A stretch of 37,260 bases of DNA. Source: an uncultured Oscillospiraceae bacterium (GTDB lineage Bacteria; Bacillota; Clostridia; Oscillospirales; Oscillospiraceae). Location of the stretch: assembly GCA_959022875.1 (NCBI GenBank), contig CAUFAM010000001.1, positions 1-37,260 of the forward strand, given 5' to 3'. Of the stretch, positions 1-32,622 are shown one piece after another; position 1 is the stretch's first letter; every line of letters starts with the position of its first letter. Under the pieces are notes generated by a model. That model made no database searches. It was not told the DNA's origin and saw only the letters and a program-made list of their open reading frames with translations. A program made the position numbers and the translations under genes.

Positions 1-132
1 TCTGTGTGGGGGATATCCAAGTACAATCACTGGCGTGAAATGATCGTCTGTGGACGTTCGTCGAAGCTCTGAATTCCATAAACTTCTGGATTATCTCTCC
101 TTTGTCACGTTCAGCGTTTGATTTTGTGTTAA

Positions 133-159
133 AAAAGTCCCCTAATTTAGGGGACTTTT
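133..159. terminator. Perfect inverted repeat, probable bidirectional intrinsic terminator
   Basis: AAAAGTCCCCTA (133-144), 3-nt loop, TAGGGGACTTTT (148-159); A/T runs on both sides. Confidence 0.65.
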
Positions 160-212
160 CAGCACTAGAAATAAAAATTCAGGGGTAGTATAGCGAGGCA
201 TAGAATAACATT

Positions 213-254
213 GGCCGCCATCTCAATACCTATGTGCAGAGATGACGGCCTTTT
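213..254 (+). terminator. Stem-loop followed by T-run, possible intrinsic terminator
   Basis: GGCCGCCATCTC...GAGATGACGGCC (11/12 match) then TTTT. Confidence 0.45.
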
Positions 255-363
255 ATGCGCCGGAAGATTTTATGGTTACTAATTCTAAACGAAAATACTA
301 GTATAGATCGATTAAAACCACCTTCATCTTGTCCACATCAAGAATACTTTTGTAGTCTTTACA

Positions 364-651
364 TTAAAGACATCCGGAAATTAAAGTAACTGGATAGTAA
401 TCATATTCTACATTATTCCAATATTCAGATTCTATTTCTACGTGCACCCCTACTATACGCTCTGCAATAATACTTTCTGAATCGTCGGCAAATATAGTGT
501 CTTCAGTAACAACAAATCGTTCTGTTTTATCGGGCCTATTGGCCAATGCGATAACAATATGTGTGTATGGGGAGTCACTTTCATCACAATAGAAGGAAAT
601 AGTCCCTTCAAAAGACTTGTGTATTAGAGTAGGTGTTTCTATTATAAAAAC
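364..651 (-). pseudogene. AT-rich gene remnant (open frame with no good start)
   Basis: The listed 60-aa ORF frame stays open upstream to 651 (VFIIETPTLIHKSFEGTISFYCDESDSPYTHIVIAL...) with no ATG or RBS. TGA at 652-654 interrupts a hydrophobic stretch IAGF*VFII. Much lower GC than the phage genes. Confidence 0.35.
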
Positions 652-1997: not shown

Positions 1998-2319
1998 CTC
2001 CGTTCACTCCTTCCCGAATCGCATTGGCCAGTTCCACATAGGACGCCAGCTCTTTCTGAGCACGATACAGAGCCTCGTTGCTGAGGTCGATCTCATTGTC
2101 CATGCCTTTCTTCAGGAACTCCTCATAGTTGTCCTGGACGTTCTGGACAATCCCGTCCCAGGTTTCCACCTCCACGTGGTACTCGTCGTACTCATATCCG
2201 GTGAACTCCTCGGTTTCTGCCGGTTTTACATTTTGAAACAGCCGCACAAGGCTTCGGTTGGTTCCCGGGATCTGCTCCACGGCGAACTTCCCCGGATCGA
2301 CCATTCCCTGTACCTTCAT
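1990..2319 (-). CDS. Small acidic phage protein (109 aa) directly downstream of the DGR RT
   Basis: ATG at 2319 with AAAGGAG RBS (2328-2334). The longer 155-aa call overlaps the RT and is unlikely. Confidence 0.65.
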   Translation of the reverse strand: MKVQGMVDPGKFAVEQIPGTNRSLVRLFQNVKPAETEEFTGYEYDEYHVEVETWDGIVQNVQDNYEEFLKKGMDNEIDLSNEALYRAQKELASYVELANAIREGVNGVD

Positions 2320-2333
2320 AGGTGCCACTCCTT

Positions 2334-3509
2334 TCAGGCCGCCCGATAAGGCGGATATAATCGTTGTAGCCGCCGACATTCCCTTCGGACGACTTTCTTG
2401 AGATTGAACATGGTATTCGGCTGATAATACCGCTCCAATATTCGCTGACTGTTGCAATTACGGAGCTGCCCCAGTCTTGAGATCAGTCCGGACGCCCTTT
2501 TGAACGAGATGACCCGGTTCCGGTCTCTCCGGTGGTAGTAGGTGTGCAGCGCCCGCTTGAGCCGGAACAGGTTGTGCTTTCGGAGGATCGTGTACCCATG
2601 CCCGAAACGATAGCCCAACGCAGACGGGATTCTTGGCCGGCGGTGCCGCTGTTTCTTCTCGTGCAGGGTGTCGTGGGCTTTCGCCACCCTCGGCGTAAAG
2701 CCTACTCGGAAGATCTGCCAATTTCCCTTCAACCGCAAGCCCACCTCGGCCAGCCATGCCCGGATGTCATCCAGCAGCCGCCTCAGCTTCCGCTTATTGG
2801 AGCCGAAGATGGTGAAGTTGTCCATCTGCCGCAGATAGTGGCTCACACCATATTGCTTTTGGTGGATCATCAGATCCAGCGGCTGGAGCAGCAGATGCAG
2901 GAACCATGCGGAGAAGAACGCGCCGATCAGGACTCCGTACTCCATCAGCGCGTCGCACAGCCAGAGCGTTTCCCGGTCCTTGAACAGACGTTTCAGCGCA
3001 TGGATGACATACGGCGGGTCCACCTCCACAAAGCAGTGGTGAATGTCGCACTCCGCGCAGTATTGGGTGCCCACTGGGTCATTCTTCATCCATTTCTTCA
3101 AAACCTTTACGCCATAGGAGTTGCCGCGCCCCGGCACGCTTGCGATGCAATACTTGTCCATGCTCCGCTTGATGTGCGGAATCATGGGCTGCACTACCGC
3201 GTGGTGGACATACTGGTCCGGCCACAAAAGCGGCTCATTGATATCCCGCCATTTCCCTTTGCCGCTGTCCGCGTTCCGGTCCCATTTCCGCCGTTGCAGG
3301 GGTTTATGCATATGCTCGTCTCCGGTCACCAGGTCTTCGATGAACTTGCGGAGTTTTACCACATATTCATCGATATGCTCCTCGATTTCCATGACCTTCT
3401 TATTTAAGCTGTAGTCGCCGTTGCGCCGGTGTCCCCGGTTGACATCCTGAATAGCCAGACGCAGGTTTTCATCGGAAATGATTTGTTGGTAAATTCTAAC
3501 TCGTTTCAT
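2334..3509 (-). CDS. DGR reverse transcriptase with non-canonical motifs (QMDN)
   Basis: RT-like blocks in order: KWRDINEP..PDQYVHHA, ASVPGRG, ECDIHHCF (motif A Asp), GVLIGAFFSA, HYLRQMDNFTIFG, GLRLK, ALGY. Basic protein adjacent to a TR/VR pair. ATG at 3509 with AAGGAGG upstream. Confidence 0.9.
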   Translation of the reverse strand: MKRVRIYQQIISDENLRLAIQDVNRGHRRNGDYSLNKKVMEIEEHIDEYVVKLRKFIEDLVTGDEHMHKPLQRRKWDRNADSGKGKWRDINEPLLWPDQYVHHAVVQPMIPHIKRSMDKYCIASVPGRGNSYGVKVLKKWMKNDPVGTQYCAECDIHHCFVEVDPPYVIHALKRLFKDRETLWLCDALMEYGVLIGAFFSAWFLHLLLQPLDLMIHQKQYGVSHYLRQMDNFTIFGSNKRKLRRLLDDIRAWLAEVGLRLKGNWQIFRVGFTPRVAKAHDTLHEKKQRHRRPRIPSALGYRFGHGYTILRKHNLFRLKRALHTYYHRRDRNRVISFKRASGLISRLGQLRNCNSQRILERYYQPNTMFNLKKVVRRECRRLQRLYPPYRAA

Positions 3510-3700
3510 CAGGGATAGTGTTCCTCCTTGTAGCCTCACAACTGTTCCATCGCCGCGGGTGGTTCCGGGGCGGGACCCGGCCCGAAGTGTACTAAGCTGT
3601 GTCCTGACGGCTCATCTTCAGCAAGTGCTGCGCGGTCAACGATGCGTAATAGAAAGGGTGAGGAACCCTGACTACCAAAAGGAGGTTTAGCCATACCCGA

Positions 3701-3716
3701 CAGGTCCTTCGACCTG
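3701..3716 (-). other. Hairpin just 3' of TR, in the TR-RNA spacer
   Basis: CAGGTC-GAAG-GACCTG on the coding strand; perfect 6-bp stem. Confidence 0.55.
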
Positions 3717-3730
3717 CGTCTGCTTCAAGA

Positions 3731-3871
3731 AGGCGACAGCCGATGTTGGAGTTGGAGTTCGACGCGTTGTTGTAGTTCACGTAGAAAGGCCCGTGATTCT
3801 GGTTCTGGTTATAGTTACCGCCATGGTGCAGGCACGGGTTACTACCGTTGAAATTCCAGTTATCCGGGACA
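3731..3871 (-). ncRNA. DGR template repeat (TR)
   Basis: 141-nt ungapped match to 4057-4197; 39 adenines on the coding strand, 14 AAY codons (reads DNWNFNGSNPCLHHGGNYNQNQNHGPFYVNYNNASNSNSNIGCR). Confidence 0.95.
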
Positions 3872-3965
3872 TCGTCTGCTGCAAAGTTGACCCCGCGCTT
3901 TCCCCTTACCAAAGGAAAAGCGGTTTATTAGAGCAAAATCGCTCCATTTTGAATTTTTATAAGGC

Positions 3966-4015
3966 GGAGGTTGGGGGAAGGGACTGCGGTCCCCTCACCC
4001 CAAACCCCCTCCTCC
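3966..4015 (-). other. GC-rich imperfect hairpin downstream of the target gene (candidate retrohoming element or terminator)
   Basis: Core GGGAC-TGCG-GTCCC (3980-3993), extended by TTGGGG/CCCCAA and GGAGG/CCTCC. Confidence 0.55.
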
Positions 4016-4028
4016 ACAGGGGAATAAG

Positions 4029-6767
4029 TCACGCCGCCTTCGGCGGGCGCTCCTGGAGGCGACAGCCGATGACGGAGTAGGAGTACGACGCGTCGCTGCA
4101 GCTCACGTAGAAAGGCCCGCGATCCCGGTTCCGGCTATAGCTACCGCCATGGTACAGGCACGGGCTACCACCGTTGAAACCCCAGCTATCCGGGACACAA
4201 GTTGTAGTACTGCCAGAGGATTCGGAGGGGTAAAGCGCCCACTCTAGACCGCTTTGAGTCGGGATGGCGAAATCGCTGGGGTAGCCGCTGGTTGGCTTGC
4301 CCACCAGAACCCCGTTGGCATTGTCACTGAACTGATTGGGATTCTTGATGACATTCAGGCCATTGGCATTGTAGTAGCACCCGTCCATCCAGTCGTACAC
4401 GTTGTCCCACCAGCCCTCGATATTCCGGTACTGGCAGAACCCATAGGAATTCCGGTTGACCGCCGTGGTTCCCGTGTGGTATTTCATGGCGTCCGTCTTT
4501 CCGTTGTTTTCCCTGGAGCCGCTGGCCGAACAGCCCAGGCCGATGCGCTCACCGTTCCAGTCCGCGAATTCCACCAGGAACAGCATATTCACATACCAGA
4601 ACTGGGCAAAGTCCATCTGCCAGATGTTCGTCCCCAGATTGTGGATATTGGTGCGGGCAATGGAACGGGTGATGTTGACCATCTGCGCCTGATTGGTCTC
4701 CGATTTCCAGTTGGAGCCGCAGTGGTACCGGCCGATGTAGGAGTGATCCAGCTCGCCCAAGCCATCGCCCCGATCCATATTCACAGGGTCCACATGGAAC
4801 CCCTCAACAGGGCCGTCCGCGATTTGCAGCTTCAACTTCTTCCCCGTCTTGGTCCACTTGAACCAATACTTGGGCTCTTTCACCATCACACCACCGGTCC
4901 GGGTAACCTTGGTCATGTCCCTCCACGGGTACAGGTTGTCAAATGGGGAGGAGCCGGAGCCATTATTCACTGCCGGATTGGGGTCGCCGAACCCGGCCGC
5001 CCCGTCTGTGCGCTTGCCCTTGGTGGAGCCGCTGCTGGTCCAATCCCACTCCACGCCGTAGATGGTGACGAACTGAGCCTTGACCTGTATCTGCTTGTCC
5101 GCGCCGGCCAGATAGTTGTCCCCCTCTGCCACCTTGACGGTAATTGTGGTGGTGCCTGTGGTGTCCTTTACACTGTTCACCGTCACCTCCCCCGTGATCT
5201 GATTGACGCTGCTCACGGTAGCCACACTCTGACTGTTGGAGATGGCGGAGATCACGCCGTCCCCCTTCCGGGTCACCGTGAATTTGGCGCTTCGGGCACT
5301 GGTGTTCAGGGTCACAGCTGCGGGGCTTACCGTCACTACCTGGTCGCCCTTGGCGATGGACCAAGTCGCGGTCTTGCCGCCCACTTCGCCGTCCCACCAC
5401 TGGTGGTTGGAGTCCGGTGTAAAGGTGGCGGTGTATCCCGTCCCGGCGTTGATTTGGGGCTCCACCGAAACGGTCATCTTATTGCTGTCATAATTGCTGT
5501 CCCAGGACGGGGTCTTGGGGTTGCCGTCGTACTTCGGCACCTCGCTCTGCTTGGGCACCGCCGCCAGGCTGGCCCGGCCAATGGTCCAGTTTACCGTCTT
5601 CTTCCCGGTGGTGCCGTCCGACCACATGCCTTTCAGCAGGGTAAAGGTGGCGGTATGGGTGCCCGCGTTGGTCTGGGGCGTCACCGACACCGAGGAATTC
5701 TCCTGGTCAAAGTTGTTCCACTCCGGCGTCTGCGGCGCGCCCGTATAGACGGGAGAGCCCTTCTGTACCGGGATGGGTACGATAACGCTGGTGATGGTCC
5801 AGATGACCTCCTTGGCCCCGGTGGAGCCGTCCCACCACTTGTAGTTGGGCGTGGGGGTGAAGGTGGCGGTATAGTCCTTGGCATCTGTGCCGAACCGCTC
5901 CCCGCCGATGATCAGCTTGCTGGTGTCGTAGTTGTCCCAGGTGGGCGTCTGGGGCTTTCCGTTGGCCGCCAGCACATTGCTCTGCTTCGGCGGCGAAGCG
6001 ATGACCGCCCGGTCGATGACCCAGCTTACGGTCGCCTCATTCTGCCCTCCGGGGAATACATAGCCATAGTCCAGAACAAACTTGGCGGAATAGGTGCCTG
6101 CATTGACGCCATTGGTTTCTCCGGAAATGGTCATCTTTCCGGTGCCATATCCGGTCCACGCCGGCGTCTTGGTCTCTCCGTCATAGGTCAGAACTCCATT
6201 TTGAACCGGGACGGCCACCTCGATGGGGTTCACCGTCACCGTCAGGCTTGCGGTCTTGGTCACGCCCTCGTAGGCGTACTGGATCTGCACTGCCTGCTGC
6301 CCCAGTGCGGAGAACGCGTCCGGGGAGTGGGTGTATCCGGAGACTTCCTCCGAGGATTCGTCCGAATAAGTGGCTGTGACCACCATTCCGGCCGGATCAA
6401 AGGTCTCCAGATACTGGTATGTCATCTTTGTCGGGTTTGCCGTGATGGCGATGGACACCAGCACCTTCTTCACCGTCACGGGTACGCTGGCCGTCTTGGT
6501 GATCCGCCCCTCCGTGTAAGTAATGGTCACCTCCGTGACCCCATCCGTCAGAACCTGAGGCGAAACGGTGTAGCCGGTCACGTCTGAAGTAAGACCATAC
6601 CCATAGCCCGCCGTGACCACCATGCCGGTCGGGTCAAAGGACTCCCCGGACTTATAGACCGTCTTGTTGGGCTGCTTGGTAATTGCCAGGGTCTCCAGCT
6701 TCAGAGTGCCGCCGCCACCGTTGCCGCCGGTCATGTTGAAAACCTTGCCGACGTTAGCGTTACTCAT
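4029..6767 (-). CDS. DGR target: tail fibre/receptor-binding protein with Ig-like repeats and C-terminal CLec-like variable domain
   Basis: Two Big_3-like repeats (ITKQPNKTVYKSGESFDPTGMVVTA / ITANPTKMTYQYLETFDPAGMVVTA); four ~72-aa repeats (P.Q....Y.G....P.W...NAGT.TATF); C-terminal YRNIEGWWDNVYDWMDG...GCRL typical of CLec/FGE-type DGR targets; VR at the 3' end. Confidence 0.88.
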   Translation of the reverse strand: MSNANVGKVFNMTGGNGGGGTLKLETLAITKQPNKTVYKSGESFDPTGMVVTAGYGYGLTSDVTGYTVSPQVLTDGVTEVTITYTEGRITKTASVPVTVKKVLVSIAITANPTKMTYQYLETFDPAGMVVTATYSDESSEEVSGYTHSPDAFSALGQQAVQIQYAYEGVTKTASLTVTVNPIEVAVPVQNGVLTYDGETKTPAWTGYGTGKMTISGETNGVNAGTYSAKFVLDYGYVFPGGQNEATVSWVIDRAVIASPPKQSNVLAANGKPQTPTWDNYDTSKLIIGGERFGTDAKDYTATFTPTPNYKWWDGSTGAKEVIWTITSVIVPIPVQKGSPVYTGAPQTPEWNNFDQENSSVSVTPQTNAGTHTATFTLLKGMWSDGTTGKKTVNWTIGRASLAAVPKQSEVPKYDGNPKTPSWDSNYDSNKMTVSVEPQINAGTGYTATFTPDSNHQWWDGEVGGKTATWSIAKGDQVVTVSPAAVTLNTSARSAKFTVTRKGDGVISAISNSQSVATVSSVNQITGEVTVNSVKDTTGTTTITVKVAEGDNYLAGADKQIQVKAQFVTIYGVEWDWTSSGSTKGKRTDGAAGFGDPNPAVNNGSGSSPFDNLYPWRDMTKVTRTGGVMVKEPKYWFKWTKTGKKLKLQIADGPVEGFHVDPVNMDRGDGLGELDHSYIGRYHCGSNWKSETNQAQMVNITRSIARTNIHNLGTNIWQMDFAQFWYVNMLFLVEFADWNGERIGLGCSASGSRENNGKTDAMKYHTGTTAVNRNSYGFCQYRNIEGWWDNVYDWMDGCYYNANGLNVIKNPNQFSDNANGVLVGKPTSGYPSDFAIPTQSGLEWALYPSESSGSTTTCVPDSWGFNGGSPCLYHGGSYSRNRDRGPFYVSCSDASYSYSVIGCRLQERPPKAA
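4034..4046 (-). other. GAA-triloop hairpin 3' of VR (IMH-associated candidate)
   Basis: CCGCC-GAA-GGCGG on the coding strand, 10 nt past the end of TR/VR homology; absent after TR. Confidence 0.6.
4057..4197 (-). repeat. DGR variable repeat (VR)
   Basis: 20 mismatches to TR: 16 A->G, 3 A->T, 1 C->T (coding strand). Confidence 0.95.
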
Positions 6768-13527: not shown

Positions 13528-16500
13528 TTAGTTCCCCCTTCCTCTGCGCGTGACCCTCTGCCCAAGGGCGTTGTCCATGGGTCCTGCCATCTCGCCCACC
13601 AGCGTGCCGGTGTCCAGAACCACACGCATCCGTTCCATTCGCTCCGTCATCTCCGCCATTTCGCTGCGAAGGGCACGGAGCTCCTCCACAATGTCGCCGT
13701 TATCCACGTTGACCACCGTTCCGCCGCTTCGGCCGGACTCAGCAAAGGCCAGGCTGGCCTGCCCGGCAAGGCCGATGGTCCGCTGGGGATAGAACAGGCT
13801 GTTCAGCTCGTCCGCCCCGCGCATTACATCGGAGAGGTCAAGCACCGGCCGGATCGTGGGCTGAGCATCCATATCCCCGCTGAGCAGCTCGGCCGCGATG
13901 GACATGGCGTTGGAAAGGCCGTCTGCGGCGTACTCCGCCACATTCGCCCCCGCGGCGTAGGACTTCTTCGCGTAGTCTGCCAGTCCCGTCACAAAGCCAA
14001 GCCCCGTAAAGTTGCGCAGCTCCCGGAAGACCCGAGAAGGAGAATTGATCTTCAGCGTGCTCTTGACCGCCTCTACGCCGGCCAGCGCCATGCTGGTCAG
14101 TTCGTCGAGGAAGGCGGATTTCGACAGGGAGACGCCCTCCGCAAGACCGGCGGGGATCTGCTGTCCCGTCTCAGTCCATCCGGCTTCCTTCAGGATCTTC
14201 GTGGCCGCCTCGGTCATTTCCCGCATCTCGGCCTCGGTGTCCTTCTTGATCAAGCCCACGTTTTCCGCGAACTCCTGCCGGAGCGACGCCAGTTGATTGG
14301 CTGTGTCCTCTTCCAACTGGGACAATTCCTCCTGCCAGGTAATGCGGTACTCCTCCAGCTCCGCTTCCGCGTCGGCCCGCAGCTGAGCGATCTGCTCCTG
14401 GGTTTCCACGCGGAGGCCTTCCAGCTCTGAGGTGGCCTGTTCCCGGGCCTGAGCGTGCTTAACGGACCAGAGGGAGACGTACTTCTCCAGCTCGTCGTCG
14501 CTCATGGAATTCAGCGCCCGGATCTCTTCGATGGCGGACGGCCCCATCTCCTGGAGTTCGGAAATCAGGTCCGCATCAACCCCCCTGGCGGAGAGCTGGC
14601 CCAGAATATCCTGCCATTCGCCGAACTCCTGCACCTGCCCCTCCAGGTTCTTCATCAGCGTATCGCTGCTGACGGTCTCCTTCTTTGTAACTTCATCGAA
14701 AAGGCCGTAGGACTGGTAGAGACTGTTGGTACGGGATTCCACCGCGTTCTGATACTGGTCATTCAGCGACTGAATATCCCGTTCCAGCTGCTCATTGACA
14801 GAGCGAACCTTGTTGGCATACTCCTGCTCCAGCTGGATGCGCTTCTGGTTGGCGGACTCCTGAACGCTCTGGACGTCGGCGATATACTGCTTCTGGGCCT
14901 CATAGATCTTCTGCTCCAGCTGATAGACCTTCAGGTCCATCTCCTCGCGCTCTTTGCTGCCCGCCGCATACCGGCTCTGAACACGCTTATAGGCGGCCAG
15001 CTCGTCCGCCAGGCTCATTCGGCCGTAGTTCTTCTCCTTCTCGATCCAGTCCATAGAATTCTGATAGGACTCGTCCACAAGCTGGTTGCGAAGGGTGTAG
15101 ACCTCCCGGTCGATCTTCTTGCGTTCCTCGCTGCCCTCCATATACCGGGACTGCATCCGCTCATAGGCGGCCAGTTCCTCCTCGGTGCTCAGCCGGTTGT
15201 AGTATTTCTCCTCCTCGATCCAGTCGAGGGAAGCCTGATAGGTGGACGCCACCAGTTCATTTTGAAGCTGATAGACCTCCCGGTCGATTTGCTTCCGCTC
15301 CTCGGAACCGGCTTTGTACTGCTTCTGAAGGTTTTCCCATCCGGCCAGCTGGTCTTTCAAACTCAGCTCGTCGTAATAGGTCTTCTCATCCACCCAGTCC
15401 TTCCAGGCGTCGATGCCTTTGTTGCTGACGGCGATAACCTCGCCGATCATGTCGGAAGTGGCCTGGGCGGCCGGGACGATGCTGTTGTCGACGCCGATGG
15501 CCAGGCCCTCACCGATGTTCTCGCCCAGATAAATGAACTCCCGGGAGGGAGAATGGCTGTCCAGGGCCTTTTTCGCCGCGTTCAGCGCGGCAAGGCCCAG
15601 ACTGCGGCCCGCGGAACTGGAGGCGCTGAACTTAGAGCGGATGCCTTTGACAAAGCCCTGTCCGGCATTTTCACCGGCAGTCTCAAACTCGGGCTTCATG
15701 CTGTTGATTTGGGATACGGCCGCAGACGCCACCGTCCCCGCTGCCGTTTTTACGGCGCCGGAAGACGATAGGATCGAAACGGCGAGATTCCGCATCATGC
15801 CCTCAACTGCGGACTCGATCACAACGACCTTTTTGTCTACAATATCCGCCATTGACTCCACAAGCGTCTCCATGACGGAGCTTGCCACCGGGATATTCGA
15901 CGTGATGGAACCACGGACGGAGGTCAGCATACTGACCACGGCGCTGTTTACGGTGCCGCCGCAGTTGTAGAAGGCGTCGGTGAATCCGGAAATCCCGGCG
16001 TCGCCCATCTTCTTCATACTGTCGGCGAATTTGGTCAGGCCGCTGGTATTGACGCCGTTTACCCCTTCCGCCAGCTCGATCAGATCCCAGACCTGGGTGA
16101 TAACGTCGGACAACTTGCCGAGGTCAATACCGGAAATCTCATTGTAGTAATCCTTCATGGAGGCGCCGAATTTGGAAATATCCGCGCCAAAGGACGCCAG
16201 CGTCTGATCCCCGCCGAACCACTGGTCGAACAGACTGCTGTCCGGAAGGCCGGTCGCCAGATTGGAAAGCGCGCTCGCAGCGTTGGCCGAGGCCGTTACC
16301 GCTTCCGGCTTCACATCCTTGATGGCCTCCGCATAGGCGGCCAGATCTGCGCCGAAGGCCGTGAGGTCGTCTCCAAAGGCAGTCAGATCGGTTCCTCCCG
16401 TAAAGAAGGAGAGCAGCCCGCCCGTATTGGGTAAGGTATTCGCCAGTTCCACCAGCGCCTGACCGGCGGAGGCGGAACTTTCCACGGCAGTGGGATTGAT

Positions 16501-19500
16501 GTCGGCCACAGCGTCGCTGTAAGACTTCATGGCCGCGCCGAAGGGGATGATCCCGGCGGCAAAGGCGGCCAGATCATGGCTTCCATTGAAAAACTCCATG
16601 ACTCCGCCCGCCAGGGGAAGGGATTCTTGCAGCCTTGCCAGGGACTGGGCCGCCACTGCCGAGGCGGTGATAGCCCCGGTGTTGATGTCCGCCACGGCGT
16701 CTCCGTAGGACTTCATAGCCGCGCCGAAGGGGACAATACCCGTGGCAAAGGTGCCAAGGTCGTTGCCGCCATCAAAGAAGGTCATCACACCGCCCACATT
16801 GGGCAGATTGGTCTGAAGCTGGGCCAGGGACTGGGCGGCAACCGCAGAAGCCGTGATCGCCTCGGCGTTGATACCGGCCACGGCTTCCCCATAGGATTTC
16901 ATGGCCGCTCCAAAGGGCACAATGCCCTCCGAGAATTTACCGAGATCGTTTCCTCCCGTGAAGAACTCCATGACCCCGCCAACCTGCGGCAAAGCAGCCT
17001 GAAGTTTTGCCAACGACTGGGCGGCGACTCCAGATGCCTCCACGGCATCGGCGTTGATACCGGCCACGGCTTCCCCATAGGACTTCATGGCCGCGCCAAA
17101 GGAGATGACGCCCTCGGAGAATGTTTCAAGGTCGTTCCCGCCGGTGAAAAACTCCATGATGCCGCCCACGTTGGGCAGAGATGCTTGCAGCTCCGCCAGG
17201 GCCTGAGCCGCCACAGCCGAGGCGGAGACCGCGCCGGCGTCAATGCCGGAAACAGCGCCGCCATAGGCTTTCATGGCCAAGCCAAAGGAAAGAACTCCAT
17301 CCGCAAAAGCCCCAAGATCGTTTCCGCCGGTGAAGAATTCCAGCACCCCGCCCACATGGGGAAGAGACGCCTGAAGCGCGGAGAGGGCCTGGGCCGCGGT
17401 AATGGAGGCGGAAACAGCGCCCGCATCCAACCCGGTCACGGAATCGGCATAGGCTTTCATCCCTTCTCCGAAGGGGAGCAGACCGTTTGCGAAGGTCTCC
17501 AAGTCGTTGCCTCCGGTGAAGAAGTCTACCACTCCGCCGATATTGGGAAGGGAGGCTTGCAGCTCTGCCAGCGCCTTTGCCGCAGTGGCGGAAGCGGTCA
17601 CCGCTTCGCCATCCATGCCGGTCACGCTGTCGGAATAAGCCTTCATCGCCTCTCCAAAGGGAACCAACTGATCGCCAAAGGTCTCCAAATCGTTGTCGCC
17701 CGTGAAGAATGCGACCAGACCTCCGGTATTCGGAATGGTATTTGCCAGCTCCACCAGAGTTTTTCCGGCAATGGCCGAATTCGCAACCGCGTCGCTATCC
17801 AAACCGCTGACCGATTTTGAATAATTCTTCATGGAGACGCCAAAGGAGGCAAGCTGCGCTCCGAAGGTCGCCATATCGTTGTCGCCGGCAAAGAATGCGA
17901 CAGCGCCCCCCGTGTTCGGGAGCGTGGCCGCCAGTTCCGCCATGGCCTGCCCGGCGATGGCTGAGTTCTTAACCGCGTCCACATCCAGTCCGGTCACCGC
18001 GTCAGAGTAGGCTTTGATGGCCTCCCCAAAGGGGGCCAGCTGGTCGCCGAACGCGCTCATATCGTTGTCACCGGCAAAGAAAGCCACGGCTCCGCCTGTA
18101 TTGGGCAGGGTAGCCGCCATTTCCGCCATGGCCTTCCCCGCGATGGCGGCATTGTTTACCGCGTCGGCGTCCAGCCCTTTGATGCTTGCGGCAAACCGCA
18201 TCATGGACCCGCCGAAACCAACCAGCTGGTTTCCAAACTCGTCCATGTCATTTTCGCCGGTGAAGAACCCCGCGATGCCGCCGCAGTTCGGCAGGGTCGC
18301 CGCCATTTCGGCCAGTGTCTTTCCGGCAATCGCGGCCGTGCTGACCAAATTGCCGTCAAGGCCGGCAATGCTGTTGGAAAATTTCATCATCGCCTCACCG
18401 AAGGGGACAAGCTCCCCGGCAAAGGCGGACAGGGAAGAACCGCCCGTCAGCCAGGAGGTCAACCCTTCCAGCAGATCAGCGGCAGTAATCAGCAAAATCG
18501 CCTCGGTAAGCGCCTTTACACCATCCAGCATGGCGGCGTCAATGCCACGGGCTCCATCGATAAACGGCTGTACGTTGGTCATGAACGCCGCGAGATCGGC
18601 GCCGATCTGCGGGAACGAGGCGGATATGCCGCCCATAAACCCGCCGACAATACCGCCGATAAATCCGCCAATGGCGTTTCCGATGGTTTGCAGCAGCTTG
18701 CCGCCTTCCCCAATCAGCCAGTCGAGGCCGGGAATCTGCGCCAGGCCTCCAATGGCCGCCAGAACAACGGCAAGCTCCGCCATAACAACGCCCAGGCCAA
18801 GCACGCCCACCATTGCGGAGGGGATCAGCCCGGCCAATGCGCCGAGGGCCACCATAATGCCGCTGAGAAGCCCGATCCCAGCGGCGCCTTTCAGAAGGGC
18901 GTCAGTGTCGATGCTCCCCAGGGCGGATACGATTCCGGAGAAGAAGGACATCAGCAAATTGACCACCGACTGGATCAGTGTCGGCAGATTGCGCGCCAAG
19001 CCGTCGATGACTTCGATCAGGAACTGCATGATAGAATCCACGATCTGCGGCGTATAGGCCGCCAGCGCCGCAAGGACTCCGGCAATCAGCTCCAGAGCCC
19101 CGTTGGCAATCGCGGGCACACACTCCACCAGGACGTCCACCAGGGTGAGCACCAGCGCTTTGACCGCGTTTCCAATCGCCGGGGCGCCATTGGTGATGAC
19201 TCCGGCAAAGGCGATGACCGCCTCGCCCAGCTGTTGGGCAATCGCAGGGATTAGCGCGGCAATACCCGTGATAATGGACGTCAACCCGGCCACAATGATG
19301 GTCACGCCTGCCCCCAGGGAGGTAGCCAGGCCCGTGATGCCGACCGCGATGGCGGTGAGCCCAGTCCCAACCAGAAGAAGCCCCGCCCCAAGGCCGGCAA
19401 TGCCGACGCCAATCAAAGCAAACGCGCCGCCCAGCCCGAGAATGGTGGGGAGCAGCGGCGTGAGAAGCGCGCCGGCCGTCCCAATCACCGTAAAGGCTCC

Positions 19501-22500
19501 GGCAACGGTAATCAGCCCCTTGGCGATGGCCTCCCAGCTCATGCTTCCCAGGGTAAAGAGCACCGGGGTCAAAACCGCCAAAGCGCTTGCGGCTACCAGC
19601 ATAGCGGCGGAACCGGCCAGTGTTCCGTTCATAAAATTCAAACCGACCGCCAGCTCGGCCAGAGCGCCGCCCATGGCAACCAGGCTTTTCGCAATGGCCT
19701 CCCAGCTCATGCCCCCCATTTTTCCGAGGGCCTCCGCCAAGACATTCAGCGCCGCTCCAACTGTGACAAGCCCCGCGCCCGTGGTAATCAAGTTCTTCGG
19801 CATGGCTTTCATGGCGATCGCCACTTCCGCCAAGGCCCCGCCCATGGCCAGCAAGCCCTTCCCGATCTCCGCCAAAAACATGCCGCCGAAGTCCGCCATC
19901 GCAGAAGCAAATATCTTCATGGCCGCGCCGATCTCAATCATGGCAAGACCAGTGGAGATAAGCCCCTGTGCATTTCCAGTCAGTTTTGTGAATGCGGTAA
20001 TCTCCAAAAGGACAGCTCCAACAGAGCTCAGCCCCTTCACCAGCTCGCCCGCATTCATCTGCCCAAAATCCTTGCAGGCGGAGGCAAAGACCTTCATAGC
20101 GCTGGCCAGAACCAGAATCCCGGCCGCAGTAGCCATGGCGCCCTTGTTGACCTTAACCGTGTTCGTGAATAGAGAAACCTCCGCCATCAGAACGCCGACT
20201 CCGGTCAAGCCCTTTGCCACCCCGGCAAAGTCCAGCTGGGCCAGGTCGATACAGGCGGAGGCAAGCATTTTGATTGCGCCGGCAAACACCACCATCTGGG
20301 CGGACCCCTTGATGACGGAGCTGGAACCGCTCCCCAAAACTTTGGCCGCAGCCACCAGCGCGGTCATCAGCCCGGCGATCCCGGCAAGGGCCACGACCAT
20401 CTGCTCCGGCTCGATATCGGAGATTTTCTTCAGGGCGGAGGCCAGCAGAAGAACTGAGGTGGAAACGCCAATCATAGCCGCAGTGCCTTTAACGACACCC
20501 TTGACTTCTCCACTAATACGACTAAAGATGGCCATGGAAGCCATCAATTCCGCAAACAGTACGGTAATGGCGCCCAGAGAAGCGGTCAGCTTGCCGCTGT
20601 CAATCAGAGAAATGGTTACGATCGCGGCCGCCAGCACGGCAATAGCGGAGGCGATTTTCAGAAGGGTTCCAGCCTTCAGCTGGGTCTGATAGGCTTCAAA
20701 GCAGCCCCGCACCCCGTCCAAAATACCCTTTACATTGTCAAGAAGGCCGCCGACATCGTCGAAAGACTTTGTCAGGCTGTTCATGAACTTGGTGATGCCT
20801 ACCGCGATTCCGCCCAGAGAAATGCCGTTGAGTAAATCAATCACTCCGCTGAAATCAGCGTTGCCAATGGCGTCTATCAGCGTGGCGGACAAGCCGCCGA
20901 GCACGCCGATGATTCCGCTGGCAATGGTTTTCACGCCGTTGAACAGGCTCTGAAGCATTTGCAGGAATTTGCTGTTTCCAACGGCGGAATCCATGGTATT
21001 TACCGCATCGTCCACCCCAAATCCCAGGCCGCCGACTGCGTCGATCACCTGGCCGATTCGGGTCTGGATGCGGCCGAGAAGCGCCTGGAACGCCTCGAAG
21101 CCGGGGATGGCAAAGACGTCGCCGAGAAACCCGATAAAGGTTTGGATTCCTGATACAACGAAACCCAGAGCATCCGCGATACCCTGGGCCACTTTACTGA
21201 AGACTTTACCTTTCTTTGCCGCGTCGTTGATGCCGGTCAGAAAATCGCCAATCGCGGCGGTCACCGTAAGAAGACCATCTGCTAGGGACCCTATGCCTCC
21301 AGCCATAGGCATGACCGCGTTGACCACCGCCATAATTGCCTGACGGCCCAAATCCAGCATGGAAAAGAGCCCTTTGAAGGTCCGCTGCAATTTATCCGCT
21401 GTTTCATCCGAAATCGTCAACCGCTCGGAAAAGCTCCGCAGCGTCTCCGTCAGCGCGTAGAGCTGGTCGGAAGTGGCGGGCGGAAAAATATCGCGGAACG
21501 CATCCTTGATCGGGGCGATAACGCTTACCAATCCCTTGGCCGCGTTCCAGACCGACTGGATCAGGTTCTCCCGGCCGGAGGGGCGCAGAATCTTCTCCGT
21601 AAACTCATCCATGGAGACGGAGCCATCCCGAAGACTGTCGGCCAGCGTTTCGATCTGCTCCACCATCTCCGAGGTGTATCCGGCGGCCTTGCGCTCCTCC
21701 TGGGACATGCCGGACATCTTTCCCTGGAGATGATAGACCGCCTCGGACAAGGTTTCAGAGGAGATTACTCCATCCTTCAACCCCTGCTTCAGCGCGTCAG
21801 TAAAGCTGTCCGAATCCGCTACCAGCTGGTCAAAGGCGTCGCCGCTCTCTCTGGCGACTGCTTGGATCGACTCTATAAAACCCGCTTCATCGGCAATTCC
21901 CTGATCCAGCAGCTGTTTCCAGCCGGAACTCAAGCCGCCGCTGAGCAGTTCGTTTCTCGCCTGGGCGGACTCGCCGATGATGCCGCCGATGGTGTTGAAT
22001 ACTTCCGTCAACAGCGCTTTTGCCTCGTCAAAGTCGCCAACCAGAATCTCCCACGTCTCGGTCCATCCCGACTGGGCGCTCTCCTTCAAGGTGTCCCATA
22101 GCTGGGTAAAGGTTTTCACCTTCGTAGCGGCGTCCTCTGCCGTCTGTGCCATCTGGGCAATTTCCTTTGCCTGGGCCTCCGTAAAGCCCTGCTGCATCAG
22201 ATCCGCCTCGGTATATGCGCCGGCAAACTGCTTCAGGGTCTCCGTGAGGACTTCCGTGGTGAGCCACTCGCCCCTGGTAAGGGATTCCCGGAAGGAACCA
22301 TACATATTGATGGCATTCTGGGCTCCGGTGCCCAGCAGCTCGGATGTGCGGACCAGGGCGTCCTGGAACACCTTGCCGCCCATGCCCGCGTTGACCACCG
22401 AGTTCCAGTCCATCAGGGACACTCTGCCTGCGGCCAGCGCCTGGGAGAGCTGATACATGGCTGTGGACGCCTGCTGGGAGGTGGAGCCGGAAATGGCGGC

Positions 22501-23055
22501 CAGGTTCGCGATACCCTTGATGGAGTCAACGGATGTCTGAAGTTTTACACCAGCCGCGGTAAACGTGCCGATGTTCCGGGTCATTTCCGTGAAGTTGTAG
22601 ATCGTCTTGTCCGCGTAGGTGTTCAGCTCATCCAGCGCCCGGTTCACCTGCTGAAGATTGGCCCCTTCGTGCTGGGTGTTCGCCAGCATGGTCTGCACCG
22701 CTCCGATCTGGGTCTCATACTCCTGAAAACCGGTTTTGATGGGGTCGATTGTAAGGGCGGACACAAGCCGTTTTTCCGTGTTCAGGGCTGAATTTGTAAT
22801 GTTGGAAAGGGTCGTCATGGCAACGACTTCAAGCGCCGAGAATTTCGCCCGAACCGTCTCGACGGAGCTGCTAAGGGCGGACATATTGCACTTCTTAGCA
22901 GCGTCGCCCAGGTTTTCAAGTCCCTTGGCAGCACCGTCCAGATCCAAACCCTGCTTGAGTTTGTCGAGTGTCGACAGACTGGTCTGCACATTCCGCTCAA
23001 ACTGTCTGTTGTCAAATCGCATCTCGACGATTCTCTCGTCGATGGTCCTGCTCAT
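13528..23055 (-). CDS. Tail tape measure protein (3175 aa)
   Basis: ATG at 23055 with GGAGG RBS; N-terminal tape-measure domain (LNTYADKTIYNF, MYQLSQALAAG...DWNSVVNAGMGG); Ala/Gly-rich amphipathic repeats; SPSR motifs near the C-terminus. Confidence 0.92.
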   Translation of the reverse strand: MSRTIDERIVEMRFDNRQFERNVQTSLSTLDKLKQGLDLDGAAKGLENLGDAAKKCNMSALSSSVETVRAKFSALEVVAMTTLSNITNSALNTEKRLVSALTIDPIKTGFQEYETQIGAVQTMLANTQHEGANLQQVNRALDELNTYADKTIYNFTEMTRNIGTFTAAGVKLQTSVDSIKGIANLAAISGSTSQQASTAMYQLSQALAAGRVSLMDWNSVVNAGMGGKVFQDALVRTSELLGTGAQNAINMYGSFRESLTRGEWLTTEVLTETLKQFAGAYTEADLMQQGFTEAQAKEIAQMAQTAEDAATKVKTFTQLWDTLKESAQSGWTETWEILVGDFDEAKALLTEVFNTIGGIIGESAQARNELLSGGLSSGWKQLLDQGIADEAGFIESIQAVARESGDAFDQLVADSDSFTDALKQGLKDGVISSETLSEAVYHLQGKMSGMSQEERKAAGYTSEMVEQIETLADSLRDGSVSMDEFTEKILRPSGRENLIQSVWNAAKGLVSVIAPIKDAFRDIFPPATSDQLYALTETLRSFSERLTISDETADKLQRTFKGLFSMLDLGRQAIMAVVNAVMPMAGGIGSLADGLLTVTAAIGDFLTGINDAAKKGKVFSKVAQGIADALGFVVSGIQTFIGFLGDVFAIPGFEAFQALLGRIQTRIGQVIDAVGGLGFGVDDAVNTMDSAVGNSKFLQMLQSLFNGVKTIASGIIGVLGGLSATLIDAIGNADFSGVIDLLNGISLGGIAVGITKFMNSLTKSFDDVGGLLDNVKGILDGVRGCFEAYQTQLKAGTLLKIASAIAVLAAAIVTISLIDSGKLTASLGAITVLFAELMASMAIFSRISGEVKGVVKGTAAMIGVSTSVLLLASALKKISDIEPEQMVVALAGIAGLMTALVAAAKVLGSGSSSVIKGSAQMVVFAGAIKMLASACIDLAQLDFAGVAKGLTGVGVLMAEVSLFTNTVKVNKGAMATAAGILVLASAMKVFASACKDFGQMNAGELVKGLSSVGAVLLEITAFTKLTGNAQGLISTGLAMIEIGAAMKIFASAMADFGGMFLAEIGKGLLAMGGALAEVAIAMKAMPKNLITTGAGLVTVGAALNVLAEALGKMGGMSWEAIAKSLVAMGGALAELAVGLNFMNGTLAGSAAMLVAASALAVLTPVLFTLGSMSWEAIAKGLITVAGAFTVIGTAGALLTPLLPTILGLGGAFALIGVGIAGLGAGLLLVGTGLTAIAVGITGLATSLGAGVTIIVAGLTSIITGIAALIPAIAQQLGEAVIAFAGVITNGAPAIGNAVKALVLTLVDVLVECVPAIANGALELIAGVLAALAAYTPQIVDSIMQFLIEVIDGLARNLPTLIQSVVNLLMSFFSGIVSALGSIDTDALLKGAAGIGLLSGIMVALGALAGLIPSAMVGVLGLGVVMAELAVVLAAIGGLAQIPGLDWLIGEGGKLLQTIGNAIGGFIGGIVGGFMGGISASFPQIGADLAAFMTNVQPFIDGARGIDAAMLDGVKALTEAILLITAADLLEGLTSWLTGGSSLSAFAGELVPFGEAMMKFSNSIAGLDGNLVSTAAIAGKTLAEMAATLPNCGGIAGFFTGENDMDEFGNQLVGFGGSMMRFAASIKGLDADAVNNAAIAGKAMAEMAATLPNTGGAVAFFAGDNDMSAFGDQLAPFGEAIKAYSDAVTGLDVDAVKNSAIAGQAMAELAATLPNTGGAVAFFAGDNDMATFGAQLASFGVSMKNYSKSVSGLDSDAVANSAIAGKTLVELANTIPNTGGLVAFFTGDNDLETFGDQLVPFGEAMKAYSDSVTGMDGEAVTASATAAKALAELQASLPNIGGVVDFFTGGNDLETFANGLLPFGEGMKAYADSVTGLDAGAVSASITAAQALSALQASLPHVGGVLEFFTGGNDLGAFADGVLSFGLAMKAYGGAVSGIDAGAVSASAVAAQALAELQASLPNVGGIMEFFTGGNDLETFSEGVISFGAAMKSYGEAVAGINADAVEASGVAAQSLAKLQAALPQVGGVMEFFTGGNDLGKFSEGIVPFGAAMKSYGEAVAGINAEAITASAVAAQSLAQLQTNLPNVGGVMTFFDGGNDLGTFATGIVPFGAAMKSYGDAVADINTGAITASAVAAQSLARLQESLPLAGGVMEFFNGSHDLAAFAAGIIPFGAAMKSYSDAVADINPTAVESSASAGQALVELANTLPNTGGLLSFFTGGTDLTAFGDDLTAFGADLAAYAEAIKDVKPEAVTASANAASALSNLATGLPDSSLFDQWFGGDQTLASFGADISKFGASMKDYYNEISGIDLGKLSDVITQVWDLIELAEGVNGVNTSGLTKFADSMKKMGDAGISGFTDAFYNCGGTVNSAVVSMLTSVRGSITSNIPVASSVMETLVESMADIVDKKVVVIESAVEGMMRNLAVSILSSSGAVKTAAGTVASAAVSQINSMKPEFETAGENAGQGFVKGIRSKFSASSSAGRSLGLAALNAAKKALDSHSPSREFIYLGENIGEGLAIGVDNSIVPAAQATSDMIGEVIAVSNKGIDAWKDWVDEKTYYDELSLKDQLAGWENLQKQYKAGSEERKQIDREVYQLQNELVASTYQASLDWIEEEKYYNRLSTEEELAAYERMQSRYMEGSEERKKIDREVYTLRNQLVDESYQNSMDWIEKEKNYGRMSLADELAAYKRVQSRYAAGSKEREEMDLKVYQLEQKIYEAQKQYIADVQSVQESANQKRIQLEQEYANKVRSVNEQLERDIQSLNDQYQNAVESRTNSLYQSYGLFDEVTKKETVSSDTLMKNLEGQVQEFGEWQDILGQLSARGVDADLISELQEMGPSAIEEIRALNSMSDDELEKYVSLWSVKHAQAREQATSELEGLRVETQEQIAQLRADAEAELEEYRITWQEELSQLEEDTANQLASLRQEFAENVGLIKKDTEAEMREMTEAATKILKEAGWTETGQQIPAGLAEGVSLSKSAFLDELTSMALAGVEAVKSTLKINSPSRVFRELRNFTGLGFVTGLADYAKKSYAAGANVAEYAADGLSNAMSIAAELLSGDMDAQPTIRPVLDLSDVMRGADELNSLFYPQRTIGLAGQASLAFAESGRSGGTVVNVDNGDIVEELRALRSEMAEMTERMERMRVVLDTGTLVGEMAGPMDNALGQRVTRRGRGN
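14900..15410 (-). repeat. Three tandem 174-nt (58-aa) charged helical repeats in the TMP C-terminal region
   Basis: TAGACCT anchor recurs at 14924, 15098 and 15272; DW...K.Y...S....LA.......Y..GS.ER...D..VY.L. Confidence 0.8.
16100..18480 (-). repeat. About 12 tandem 186-nt (62-aa) repeats in TMP
   Basis: LP(N/H/Q)xGG..FF.G.ND...F......FG..MK.Y...V motif recurs 12 times; first (~18294) and last (~16248) copies are 11 x 186 nt apart. Confidence 0.85.
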
Positions 23056-23429
23056 GACCGTGTGACCTCCTTCCATGCGTAATCTGCGATCTGGTCAAAA
23101 ATAGGCTGGATAGCAGGGTTGATGTAATCTCTTCCCTGTACCCAGCCTCCGGTCCCAGTGCCATGTCCGTATTGCAGGATAATGGCAATGGGAACTCCAT
23201 TTTGAACATTTGAATTGTGAAACGAGATGGTGACGGTGTTGTCCCTGTTGGTAATTTTGTAATACCAGGACGCGGCCGTCTCTCCGGAGTCAACAGGCGT
23301 TGCAGACGCAAGGGCGGCCACGCCTTCCCGGCCAAACTTGTCCAGATCGCCGAGATGAACCGTCTCCTTTGCTCTTTCCAGAAATCGGGTCAGCTTGGAA
23401 AAATCGCCCTTGTGTCTGAAACGAATCAC
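23052..23429 (-). CDS. HK97 gp10-like tail completion protein
   Basis: TPVDSGETAASW...YGHGT..GG.V.G..YI.PA pattern. Confidence 0.65.
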   Translation of the reverse strand: MIRFRHKGDFSKLTRFLERAKETVHLGDLDKFGREGVAALASATPVDSGETAASWYYKITNRDNTVTISFHNSNVQNGVPIAIILQYGHGTGTGGWVQGRDYINPAIQPIFDQIADYAWKEVTRS

Positions 23430-23764: not shown

Positions 23765-24118
23765 TTAAATTGCCGGGCTCTCCACAGAGCCAACCGGTGT
23801 CTGCGAAACATTTACATTGAAATTGGACGCCTTCGCCGTTTCAAAAGTGATTCCGCCCTCCCGGTGGTCGGACTTGCACAGGTTCAGATAGAAACTGCAC
23901 ACCACGCCATGGGCCGTCCAGGGCAGACCGACCATAGCGCCGATCCAGGGCAACGCTCCCATATACCCCTTATAGACACAGTAGAAGGCCAATAAAAAAC
24001 CGCCGATGGTCACGATCCACAACAGCGGACGGATATCGGCGATCATCCATTTTGAAAACTGCGAAAGGTCAGGTTTTCTTCCAGATTTGCCTCTGGTCCG
24101 GCTTCGCCTGCTTTTCAT
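23765..24118 (-). CDS. Membrane protein (holin/antiholin-like)
   Basis: ATG overlaps the endolysin stop (TGATG); strongly basic N-terminus followed by two hydrophobic segments. Confidence 0.55.
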   Translation of the reverse strand: MKSRRSRTRGKSGRKPDLSQFSKWMIADIRPLLWIVTIGGFLLAFYCVYKGYMGALPWIGAMVGLPWTAHGVVCSFYLNLCKSDHREGGITFETAKASNFNVNVSQTPVGSVESPAI

Positions 24119-32600: not shown

Positions 32601-32622
32601 AAGTACCCCCCCCCTTTTTTTT

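Follow-up and report, generated by a model that had tools for sequence, protein, structure and literature searches.

Three aspartates are taken as the hallmark of a functional reverse transcriptase (RT), and enzymes of the xxDN form are usually annotated as inactive. In the DGR of Bordetella phage BPP-1 (mtd-VR, avd, TR-Sp, brt; structure 8ub7) the catalytic aspartates of the RT, bRT, are D138/D215/D216 (bioRxiv 2023.10.23.563531), and in the DGR survey DiGReF both aspartates of YxDD were 100% conserved in 155 RTs, the last two residues of (I/L/V)GxxxSQ varying in 15/155 (PMC3521204). The change of the second Asp of YXDD to Asn has been engineered in Ty1 RT, where the D211N enzyme still polymerises, 223-fold slower and with a preference for Mn2+, and transposition is lost without suppressors (PMC2148107). 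Absence of the avd gene is described for Lineage 3 of Wu et al. 2018 (PMC5758913) and for the RT-coding F. prausnitzii phage types except Mushu and Lagaffe (PMC5883640), and CLec and Ig domains are united in the phage DGR targets called tentaclins (PMC10743442).

The DGR described here lies in a stretch of 37,260 nucleotides from an uncultured Oscillospiraceae bacterium (GCA_959022875.1, contig CAUFAM010000001.1), referred to as the window; all features given below are on its minus strand. With BPP-1 it shares A-specific TR/VR differences, AAY codons, a 3' invariant segment, GC hairpins after the VR, an RT gene downstream of the TR and a CLec target; unlike BPP-1, it has no avd and its target carries an Ig-like stalk. 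An initial annotation of this DNA had called the element a complete DGR like that of BPP-1. The DGR is real, but completeness in that sense does not hold, as avd is absent and the RT lacks one catalytic Asp. In other respects the DGR and its CLec target are what is usual in gut phages, and the most unusual feature, unremarked in that annotation, is an Asn in RT motif C at the position of bRT D216. It is proposed here, with a probability of roughly 0.8, that the lectin tip of what is likely a tail adhesin is rewritten by this prophage DGR's own Asn-bearing RT, with an active site remodelled around N231.

The cassette and its target

The template repeat (TR, 3731..3871) and the variable repeat (VR, 4057..4197, target codons 858-903) align without gaps over 141 nt with 20 mismatches, 19 of them at TR adenines (p = 7e-12 for at least 19 of 20 landing by chance on 39 adenines). 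Among the 39 TR adenines, 19 are changed in the VR (16 to G, 3 to T, 0 to C), and none of the possible adenine substitutions, in a TR that holds 14 AAY codons, creates a stop codon; the counts reported by the initial annotation were thereby reproduced in full. The 15 nt at the 3' end of the VR (4057-4071) are identical to the TR and are likely the start of the IMH. Directly after the VR, two GC-rich DNA hairpins are predicted (3966..4050; about 4050-4032 and 4009-3966), in a region with a DNA fold z of -2.6 for which 2/200 shuffles were equally good. The invariant 3' end and the hairpins would represent the IMH and GC-rich inverted repeat that count as a DGR hallmark, and by parallel with BPP-1 (PMC5758913) the hairpins are likely target-recognition stem-loops. 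The spacer between TR and RT (3510..3730), with 87% mean column identity across 12 QMDN loci, is likely a structured RNA that primes reverse transcription; RNAalifold found compensatory change in only 2/55 of its pairs, too little covariation to establish a structure. A sigma-70 promoter scan gave no match. Contigs of the RNA run X18 span the cassette, and as DNA content is possible in that run they are not counted as expression evidence.

No avd is present within the cassette, whose target-RT interval is too short for one. In the complete genome G094, which carries the same prophage, no match to bAvd or PF22296 was obtained, and the window's own genome, which is 53% complete, gave no PF22296 match, a divergent accessory protein being possible in either case. 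The A-biased TR/VR pair, the DGR-clade RT beside the TR and the in-frame VR at the target's 3' end are hallmarks of the class, and by this sequence anatomy the element belongs with the DGRs that share the BPP-1 mechanism, in agreement with the mutagenic retrohoming signature recognised initially.

The target gene (4029..6767, 912 aa) occupies the tail module's distal end, past tape measure, Dit and Tal-like genes, and encodes an Ig-like stalk followed by a C-terminal CLec domain. Two Big_3 Ig-like domains (approximately residues 24-180; 6228..6698) were located by Pfam (two stretches, E 8e-9, best 111-177) and by motifs repeated at residues 33 and 112. Next come four repeats in tandem, each about 73 aa long (beginning near 187, 260, 333 and 405; 5343..6227) and recognised from their spacing and from the DNA repeats D12/D17. 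Judging from their sequence they are likely Ig-like beta-sandwiches; their look-alikes in the Atlas are Big_2/MBG, all under 0.9 and taken as leads only. The C-terminal 342 residues (571-912; 4032..5057), which contain the VR, were modelled by AF2 from a 50-row alignment with a pLDDT of 95.2 and a pTM of 0.94 (a pLDDT of only 30 was reached from the single sequence). The model has the fold of an FGE-type C-type lectin domain, with Z scores of 23.4 for TaqVP of Thermus aquaticus (5vf4), 12.5 for TvpA and 12.2 for Mtd. TaqVP is thus the closest solved fold (rmsd 3.0, 252 residues; Foldseek E 6e-8), but its identity to the tip is 14%, and the tip described here sits on an Ig-like stalk of 570 residues whose gene belongs to a phage tail module. 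Searches of the tip sequence against PDB and Pfam returned nothing credible. The initial annotation had placed a CLec-like domain on an Ig-repeat stalk and suggested a structure prediction as a check, and both the model and the Big_3 stretches bear it out. In tentaclins, on the other hand, CLec and VR are N-terminal and followed by Ig, whereas here they are C-terminal; the domain order is reversed, and the target is therefore not a tentaclin.

The VR-bearing protein is likely a tail adhesin whose tip may bind a host receptor or a mucosal glycan, although its place on the virion is no more than suggested by where its gene stands in the tail module. It may instead be an accessory adhesin, borne by tail or capsid and directed at mucus or cell-surface glycans, and not the primary receptor-binding protein. 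The long stalk is consistent with this role, and the Ig-rich DGR targets of the Faecalibacterium phages Mushu and Brigit have been interpreted as Hoc-like (PMC5883640; PMC11792537). The same stalk also occurs in Faecalibacterium phage proteins (43% identity, residues 156-568) and in the DD-type loci L207/L208 (77%), whose tips are only distantly related to that of the target or unmatched. However, the gene stands behind those for tape measure, Dit and Tal-like proteins, phrog_5302, annotated as a tail protein, matches residues 624-911, BFVD models annotated by name as 'tail collar fiber' resemble the tip, and the fold of the tip is that of Mtd and TaqVP, so that an accessory role appears rather unlikely.

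A reverse transcriptase with asparagine in motif C

The gene following the TR (2334..3509, 391 aa), already taken for an RT in the initial annotation, matches RVT_1 (E 3.6e-7) and phrog_1423 (E 6e-51), and its sole PDB sequence match is bRT 8ub7; to the RT of FP_Epona it is only 25% identical. Its start is likely ATG 3509 rather than GTG 3539, with GGAGG upstream and top homologues that are also 391 aa long. In the alignment with bRT, motif C reads QMDN (residues 228-231; 2817..2828) for Y213-M214-D215-D216, and motif A reads E153-C154-D155 (3045..3053) for K136-S137-D138, the catalytic Asp being retained and the Lys replaced by Glu; motif 7 is ALGY for FLGY, its first residue A297 (2619..2621) corresponding to F260. 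Residues matching bRT D138, D215, I181 and M214 are thus present, whereas D216 is changed to Asn, Y213 to Gln, K136 to Glu, F260 to Ala and Q187 to Ala. From the RT fold, K136, D216 and F260 of bRT are presumably in contact in three dimensions. Where DiGReF takes [YF]xDD with both aspartates as canonical, the window RT has QMDN, and where it has (I/L/V)GxxxSQ the window RT has IGAFFSA, a minor departure (SA for SQ); SQ is retained in 37/44 of the clusters of RTs with the Asn motif (DN, as opposed to DD).

Viral loci bearing a related RT have xMDN in all 79 cases (74 QMDN, 5 YMDN), with an A-specific TR/VR pair in 52, and the Gln-Met-Asp-Asn codons are preserved in all 72 full-length QMDN genes. 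Against the window RT, dN/dS has a median of 0.078 and a range of 0.06-0.19 (69 genes with dS>0.05; median dS 1.18). By these codon comparisons the RT is under strong purifying selection, and the Asn is not a lesion, because xMDN is found in every one of these loci, dN/dS is about 0.08 and VRs differ where RT and TR are identical (see below).

RTs were sampled for a tree as 130 clusters at <70% identity, 44 DN and 86 DD. The DN clusters occupy seven places on the tree, and their monophyly is rejected (p-AU 3e-62); three of these places (P0212, P0195, P0263) are known from proteins alone, without loci, and are putative DGR RTs. The window RT nests among YMDD RTs from loci with TR/VR pairs. For P0138, the sole DD sequence within the main DN clade, the search found no locus and returned only relatives at 45-54%. 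Lys153 of motif A is present in 0/44 DN vs 65/86 DD clusters, and an aromatic residue at 297 in 0/44 vs 76/86; Phe is retained at 297 in the DD neighbours of DN placements (L417, P0223, P0222 and the L343/L302/L330 group). As neither the Lys of motif A nor the aromatic residue of motif 7 occurs in any of the 44 DN clusters, the sequences suggest an active site that has been repeatedly remodelled. Residue 153 of the DN enzymes is E, Q, S, C, A, T or V, with Glu in only 27/44 clusters, and a replacement carboxylate is therefore not required. In an independent-pair test (8 pairs), the changes went the same way 4.9 times and the opposite way 0 times at position 297 (p 0.06), and 2.8 and 0 times at position 153 (p 0.25), neither being significant.

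A literature search on xxDN DGR RTs found no paper, most supplements and most subscription papers lying outside its scope, and the parts of PMC5758913, PMC8144416 and PMC11661182 reached by term look-up hold no statement about the catalytic motif. Large DGR catalogues probably contain such RTs uncommented.

Divergence of the variable repeat and activity of the enzyme

The evidence for activity comes from assemblies throughout. In 34 locus pairs with RTs (1173 nt) at most 12 nt apart, a mean of 1.3 sites differ in the TR vs 22.3 in the VR, and 714 of the 759 VR differences are at TR adenines, the pairs sharing loci and hence being non-independent. In four pairs RT and TR are the same to the last nucleotide, yet 15-22 VR sites differ, nearly all of them at TR adenines, and the VRs are distinct in 56/56 QMDN loci having a TR/VR pair. 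A contig of run X1 spanning 2300-4700 has 23 differences from the window, all within the VR and 22 at TR adenines, and run X10 carries a different in-gene VR, with 16/17 of the sites shown at TR adenines. In G094, where the prophage has 82-87% DNA identity, the TR/VR mismatches are at A in 23/23 cases. The check put forward in the initial annotation, a VR that varies with an invariant TR, is thus answered positively across assemblies, and at this level the hallmark of a varying VR with constant TR and RT is found.

Some close relatives have an orphan second VR (3/54 loci with at least 2.5 kb downstream of the RT). The X1 VR shares 21/23 changes with the orphan VR of locus L002, and inter-copy recombination therefore accounts for part of the allele differences. 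Two VR alleles of run X2, considered as a polymorphism of one locus, were rejected as such, one of them being the L002 orphan VR at 22/22 sites, and the pair formed by L001 and the window was removed from the activity count, the L001 VR being an orphan copy joined to the TR.

Such orphan copies, able to donate alleles, are also a point in favour of a QMDN RT that is dead or nearly so, the VR differences being old, shuffled by recombination or made in trans by the canonical RT of another DGR. The invariance of both aspartates in the surveyed RTs (PMC3521204), the lost transposition of Ty1 D211N (PMC2148107) and the incompleteness of the window's own genome point the same way. Nevertheless, purifying selection is strong across saturating dS, VRs differ at TR adenines between loci identical in RT and TR, no two QMDN loci with a pair have the same VR, the orphan is found in just three loci, and the complete G094 has no other DGR RT, its one further RT being a group II intron maturase. 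A dead enzyme is consequently considered very improbable.

The preferred reading remains an active Asn-bearing RT, which likely works without the third Asp because the Asn recurs across phage lineages whose targets still show DGR-type differences. By analogy with BPP-1, RNA covering TR and spacer would be copied by reverse transcription, errors arising opposite A, and the resulting cDNA would replace the VR, guided by IMH and hairpins and without Avd. The metals would be held by D155 and D230, and the neutral N231 may be tolerated as its surroundings changed alongside, with loss of the motif-7 aromatic and of the motif-A Lys, the would-be partner of the third Asp, often with Glu in its place. 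This remodelling would have been gained, or reversed, several times. Unlike the engineered Ty1 enzyme, the Asn is here the conserved wild-type residue of several lineages.

As a tentative extension, gut Bacillota-phage DGRs may repeatedly have evolved a two-aspartate, Avd-free RT via a three-residue switch (replacement of the motif-A Lys by Glu or by a small residue, of the motif-C Asp by Asn and of the motif-7 Phe by Ala) that alters the rate or the metal usage, giving for instance an enzyme that is slower or tuned to Mn2+ like Ty1 D211N, and sets the speed of adhesin diversification. It is also conceivable, short of being probable, that the RT is active and DGR RTs can simply do without the third Asp, the replacement of Lys and Phe being a matter of packing with no effect on rate, metal or fidelity. 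The fraction of mutated AAY adenines at positions 1/2 is similar in DN (0.57/0.40) and DD (0.68/0.45), residue 153 is variable among DN enzymes and the A-to-C deficit is independent of the Asn, all of which agree with dispensability. Against it, the seven DN placements are all without Lys153 and aromatic 297 while DD neighbours keep Phe; partner changes that recur make a neutral loss of the Asp less expected, since a neutral change should need no partners.

Unlike in BPP-1, A-to-C here accounts for 9/709 changes at AAY sites, whereas in vitro it makes up about 22% of the errors of bRT (PMC7826257); for the BPP-1 system in E. coli, raised G misincorporation in an NAC context is described (PMC12875486). 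A first comparison gave a median A-to-C share of 0.056 in 22 DN clusters vs 0.22 in 11 DD clusters (p 3e-4), but the idea that the Asn causes the deficit collapsed once independent lineages were included. At AAY sites, A-to-C was 41/1474 in the main DN clade, 18/414 in the second DN lineage and 34/133 in the DN lineage L355, vs 10/137 in the DD sisters of the two DN lineages and 156/590 in outside DD. The near absence of A-to-C is real but unlinked to the Asn, and tracks the wider clade and target family; either the enzyme or selection may be responsible.

Taken together, the gut-phage DGR RTs with Asn form a large and conserved group that shows every genomic sign of activity, and motif-based calls of a dead RT would therefore be wrong for them. 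The compact Avd-free cassette, with its nearly A-to-G/T-only output, is of interest to DGR-based directed evolution. The recurring partner changes provide natural mutants for probing the role of the third carboxylate in catalysis by RTs, for which BPP-1 reconstitutions are available, and if the three-residue switch is true, the RTs concerned would be naturally occurring wild-type exceptions to the three-aspartate rule that function without Avd.

Cassette, prophage setting and target protein

The cassette lies on the minus strand in the order target gene (4029-6767), two GC-rich hairpins, TR (3731-3871), a 221-nt spacer and RT gene (2334-3509), VR (4057-4197) encoding target residues 858-903. 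The counts of the initial annotation were all reproduced: TR and VR align without gaps over 141 nt with 20 mismatches, 19 of which face TR adenines (19 of 39 adenines altered), TR holds 14 AAY codons and no stop codon is reachable by adenine change. The chance probability of this concentration on adenines is 7e-12.

Outside the cassette, the window holds head and tail genes arranged as a siphovirus-like operon (terminase, portal, protease-capsid, major tail, 3182-aa tape measure, Dit and Tal-like protein). The same region, at 82-87% identity, adjoins chromosomal genes in the complete genome G094, from a bacterium of the same family, and in close viral relatives a tyrosine integrase is encoded just past the position equivalent to the window's left end; the element is therefore a temperate phage. 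Among named relatives carrying this type of RT, Oscillospiraceae and other Clostridia predominate. The tape measure gene (13528-23076) contains long 186-nt (62-aa) tandem repeats, a lysozyme-plus-CHAP endolysin-like gene (24118-25473) separates the tail chaperone from the tape measure gene rather than following the tail module, and three small genes near terminase and portal (31358-31852, 32046-32630 and 35281-35796) share a DUF7211 N-terminal motif. The early region of the G094 prophage (L428:3625-7339) encodes a Tad3-like anti-Thoeris match, RtcB and a DUF5662/Ntox50/DUF7211 protein.

In the target, Pfam recognises two Big_3 stretches, followed by four more repeats of about 73 residues whose Ig-like look-alikes are all sub-threshold. 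The last 342 residues have no credible sequence match in Pfam or PDB; a model of this tip built from 50 homologues (pLDDT 95.2) best matches TaqVP (Z 23.4, rmsd 3.0 over 252 residues), in agreement with Foldseek, and also TvpA (Z 12.5) and Mtd (Z 12.2). The CLec domain on an Ig-like stalk proposed initially is thus supported as a predicted fold. Its C-terminal position distinguishes the target from tentaclins, described with an N-terminal CLec in the available passages of PMC10743442. Its place in the tail module favours a role as tail adhesin, as do hits to entries named 'tail protein' and 'tail collar fiber'. In two loci with DD-type DGRs (L207 and L208), the target stalk is 77% identical to residues 1-566 of the window target and the tips are about 25% identical or without match; a tip-plus-DGR module appears to have been swapped onto a common Ig stalk.

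An asparagine at the third catalytic position of an apparently active RT

Alignment of the window RT with bRT, whose catalytic residues are given as D138, D215 and D216 (bioRxiv 2023.10.23.563531, in part), shows the first two aspartates kept (D155, D230) and Asn at the third, in a QMDN motif. Both YxDD aspartates are reported as 100% conserved in 155 surveyed DGR RTs (PMC3521204), and the passages available from a bacterial RT survey give three aspartates in every group except G2L5 (PMC2602772). All 79 viral loci retrieved for the window RT nevertheless carry xMDN (74 QMDN, 5 YMDN), and 52 of them have an A-specific TR/VR pair, many of the others apparently beginning close to the RT. The motif is intact in 72/72 full-length QMDN genes and RT dN/dS is about 0.08 (69 genes, median dS 1.18). 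With L001 left out, 34 pairs of loci whose RT genes differ by no more than 12 nt (pairs share loci) show a mean of 1.3 TR and 22.3 VR differences, 714 of 759 at TR adenines; in four pairs that share RT and TR exactly, 15-22 VR sites differ. Because the motif is kept throughout, dN/dS is low and VR changes beside a constant RT and TR, QMDN is, as judged from these sequences, not a lesion.

Assembled contigs, rather than reads, of two sequencing runs point the same way: in X1 one contig covers 2300-4700 with 23 differences from the window, all inside VR, and X10 carries a different in-gene VR allele. Comparison of the sites listed for X1 and X10 gives 19 differences, each at a TR adenine, and at the window's single non-A mismatch the two runs carry the TR base. 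Variable TR-adenine positions beside a constant TR, suggested initially as a mark of current activity, are therefore seen in these contigs and in the locus pairs. Help in trans is argued against by G094, in which 23/23 TR/VR mismatches are at A, a group II intron maturase is the sole RT besides the DGR's own, and no bAvd match was found. DGRs lacking Avd have already been described (PMC5758913, PMC5883640). The window RT is considered very probably active (about 0.9).

As in BPP-1 (PMC5758913, in part), TR-spacer RNA would be reverse-transcribed with misincorporation at template adenines, and the resulting cDNA would replace VR through its 3' invariant segment and the hairpins, D155 and D230 presumably binding the metals. 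A precedent for polymerisation with Asp-to-Asn at this site is Ty1 D211N, reported to polymerise 223-fold more slowly with a preference for Mn2+ and not to transpose unless suppressors are present (PMC2148107).

Recurrence, partner changes and error spectrum

From 470 distinct RT sequences of at least 300 residues, 446 with all motifs aligned formed 130 clusters at <70% identity (44 xxDN, 86 xxDD), a sample built outward from DN enzymes and their near relatives rather than a census. The DN state takes seven tree placements requiring 8 changes, and DN monophyly is rejected (p-AU 3e-62, LG+G4) on a 28-row tree with four trait columns removed and rows picked after earlier trees had been seen; the tree being unrooted, gains are indistinguishable from reversals. 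TR/VR pairs accompany four of the seven placements (main clade, 122 VRs; second lineage, 39; L355, 18; L261, 1).

Two positions change with the motif. Lys at residue 153 (bRT K136) occurs in 65/86 DD clusters and 0/44 DN clusters (1/292 DN sequences), and residue 297 (bRT F260) is Phe/Tyr in 76/86 DD clusters and Ala, Thr, Gly or Val in 44/44 DN clusters. Sign tests on 8 independent pairs gave p 0.06 (residue 297) and 0.25 (residue 153), with no pair in the opposite direction. We take residues 153, 231 and 297 to lie close together in the RT palm fold and propose that Asn at 231 is accommodated by the absence of both the Lys and the motif-7 aromatic. Glu at 153 might restore charge; found in just 27 of the 44 DN clusters, it cannot be essential. 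Functional compensation by these changes is slightly favoured. P0138, a YMDD protein that groups within the main xxDN clade and has Tyr153 and Ala297, may be a reversion; a search for its locus found none. Negative-strand RNA virus polymerases carry GDN at motif C, and the literature search found no paper tying this to DGR RTs.

A-to-C changes are nearly absent at AAY sites of QMDN loci (9/709), in contrast to about 22% of bRT errors in vitro (PMC7826257, in part); in E. coli, bRT reportedly misincorporates G more often in the NAC context (PMC12875486). Of the 54 A-to-C changes in QMDN loci, 42 fall at a single template site. Loss of A-to-C reduces the residues accessible to an AAY codon from 15 to 9. 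Asn as the cause is ruled out, since DD sister lineages share the deficit (10/137) and the DN lineage L355 does not (34/133); it is therefore a trait of the wider clade or target family.

Orphan VRs and significance

In seven of the eight runs examined (X2, X3, X7, X10, X13, X18 and X19, not X1), loose contig ends were present at 4024, 4234 or both; they led to a second copy of the target 3' end. This 211-nt orphan VR comprises 37 nt, VR with its invariant end, the first hairpin and the stop, and is located close to the integrase end, about 1.9 kb beyond the RT, in L002 (3099-3309) and L004 (3317-3527), with a shorter match in L040 (2221-2411). It was found in 3/54 QMDN loci with enough DNA downstream of the RT and not in the window's own assembly. 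In L002 and L004 its reading frame lacks an ATG start, and its differences from TR are at adenines in 20/20 and 17/18 cases respectively. It may still be diversified as a second target, serve as a store of alleles or be a duplicate that no longer changes. Among relatives, the content of the interval from the last tail-side gene to the integrase end differs: AT-rich DNA without assignment in the window (1-634), a DRT2-like defence RT in L005 (3355-4614; PADLOC E 1e-126), the orphan VR in others and, in L001 (923-4971), Gabija GajA/GajB joined via an orphan VR, possibly by misassembly.

No published description of an xxDN-type DGR RT was found in a literature search covering mainly the main text of openly available papers, and term look-up in the available text of PMC8144416 and PMC11661182 returned no statement on the catalytic motif. 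As new examples, the DGR and its target belong to known types; the RT variant appears to be unreported. The complete genome G008 carries a YMDD (L432) and a YMDN (L433) DGR together, each with its own TR/VR pair (13/14 and 14/14 mismatches at A), offering a natural side-by-side comparison. New in this analysis are the repeated origin of xxDN, the two residues (153 and 297) that change with it, the search of a complete genome for another DGR RT, the finding that the A-to-C deficit does not follow the Asn, and the orphan VR.
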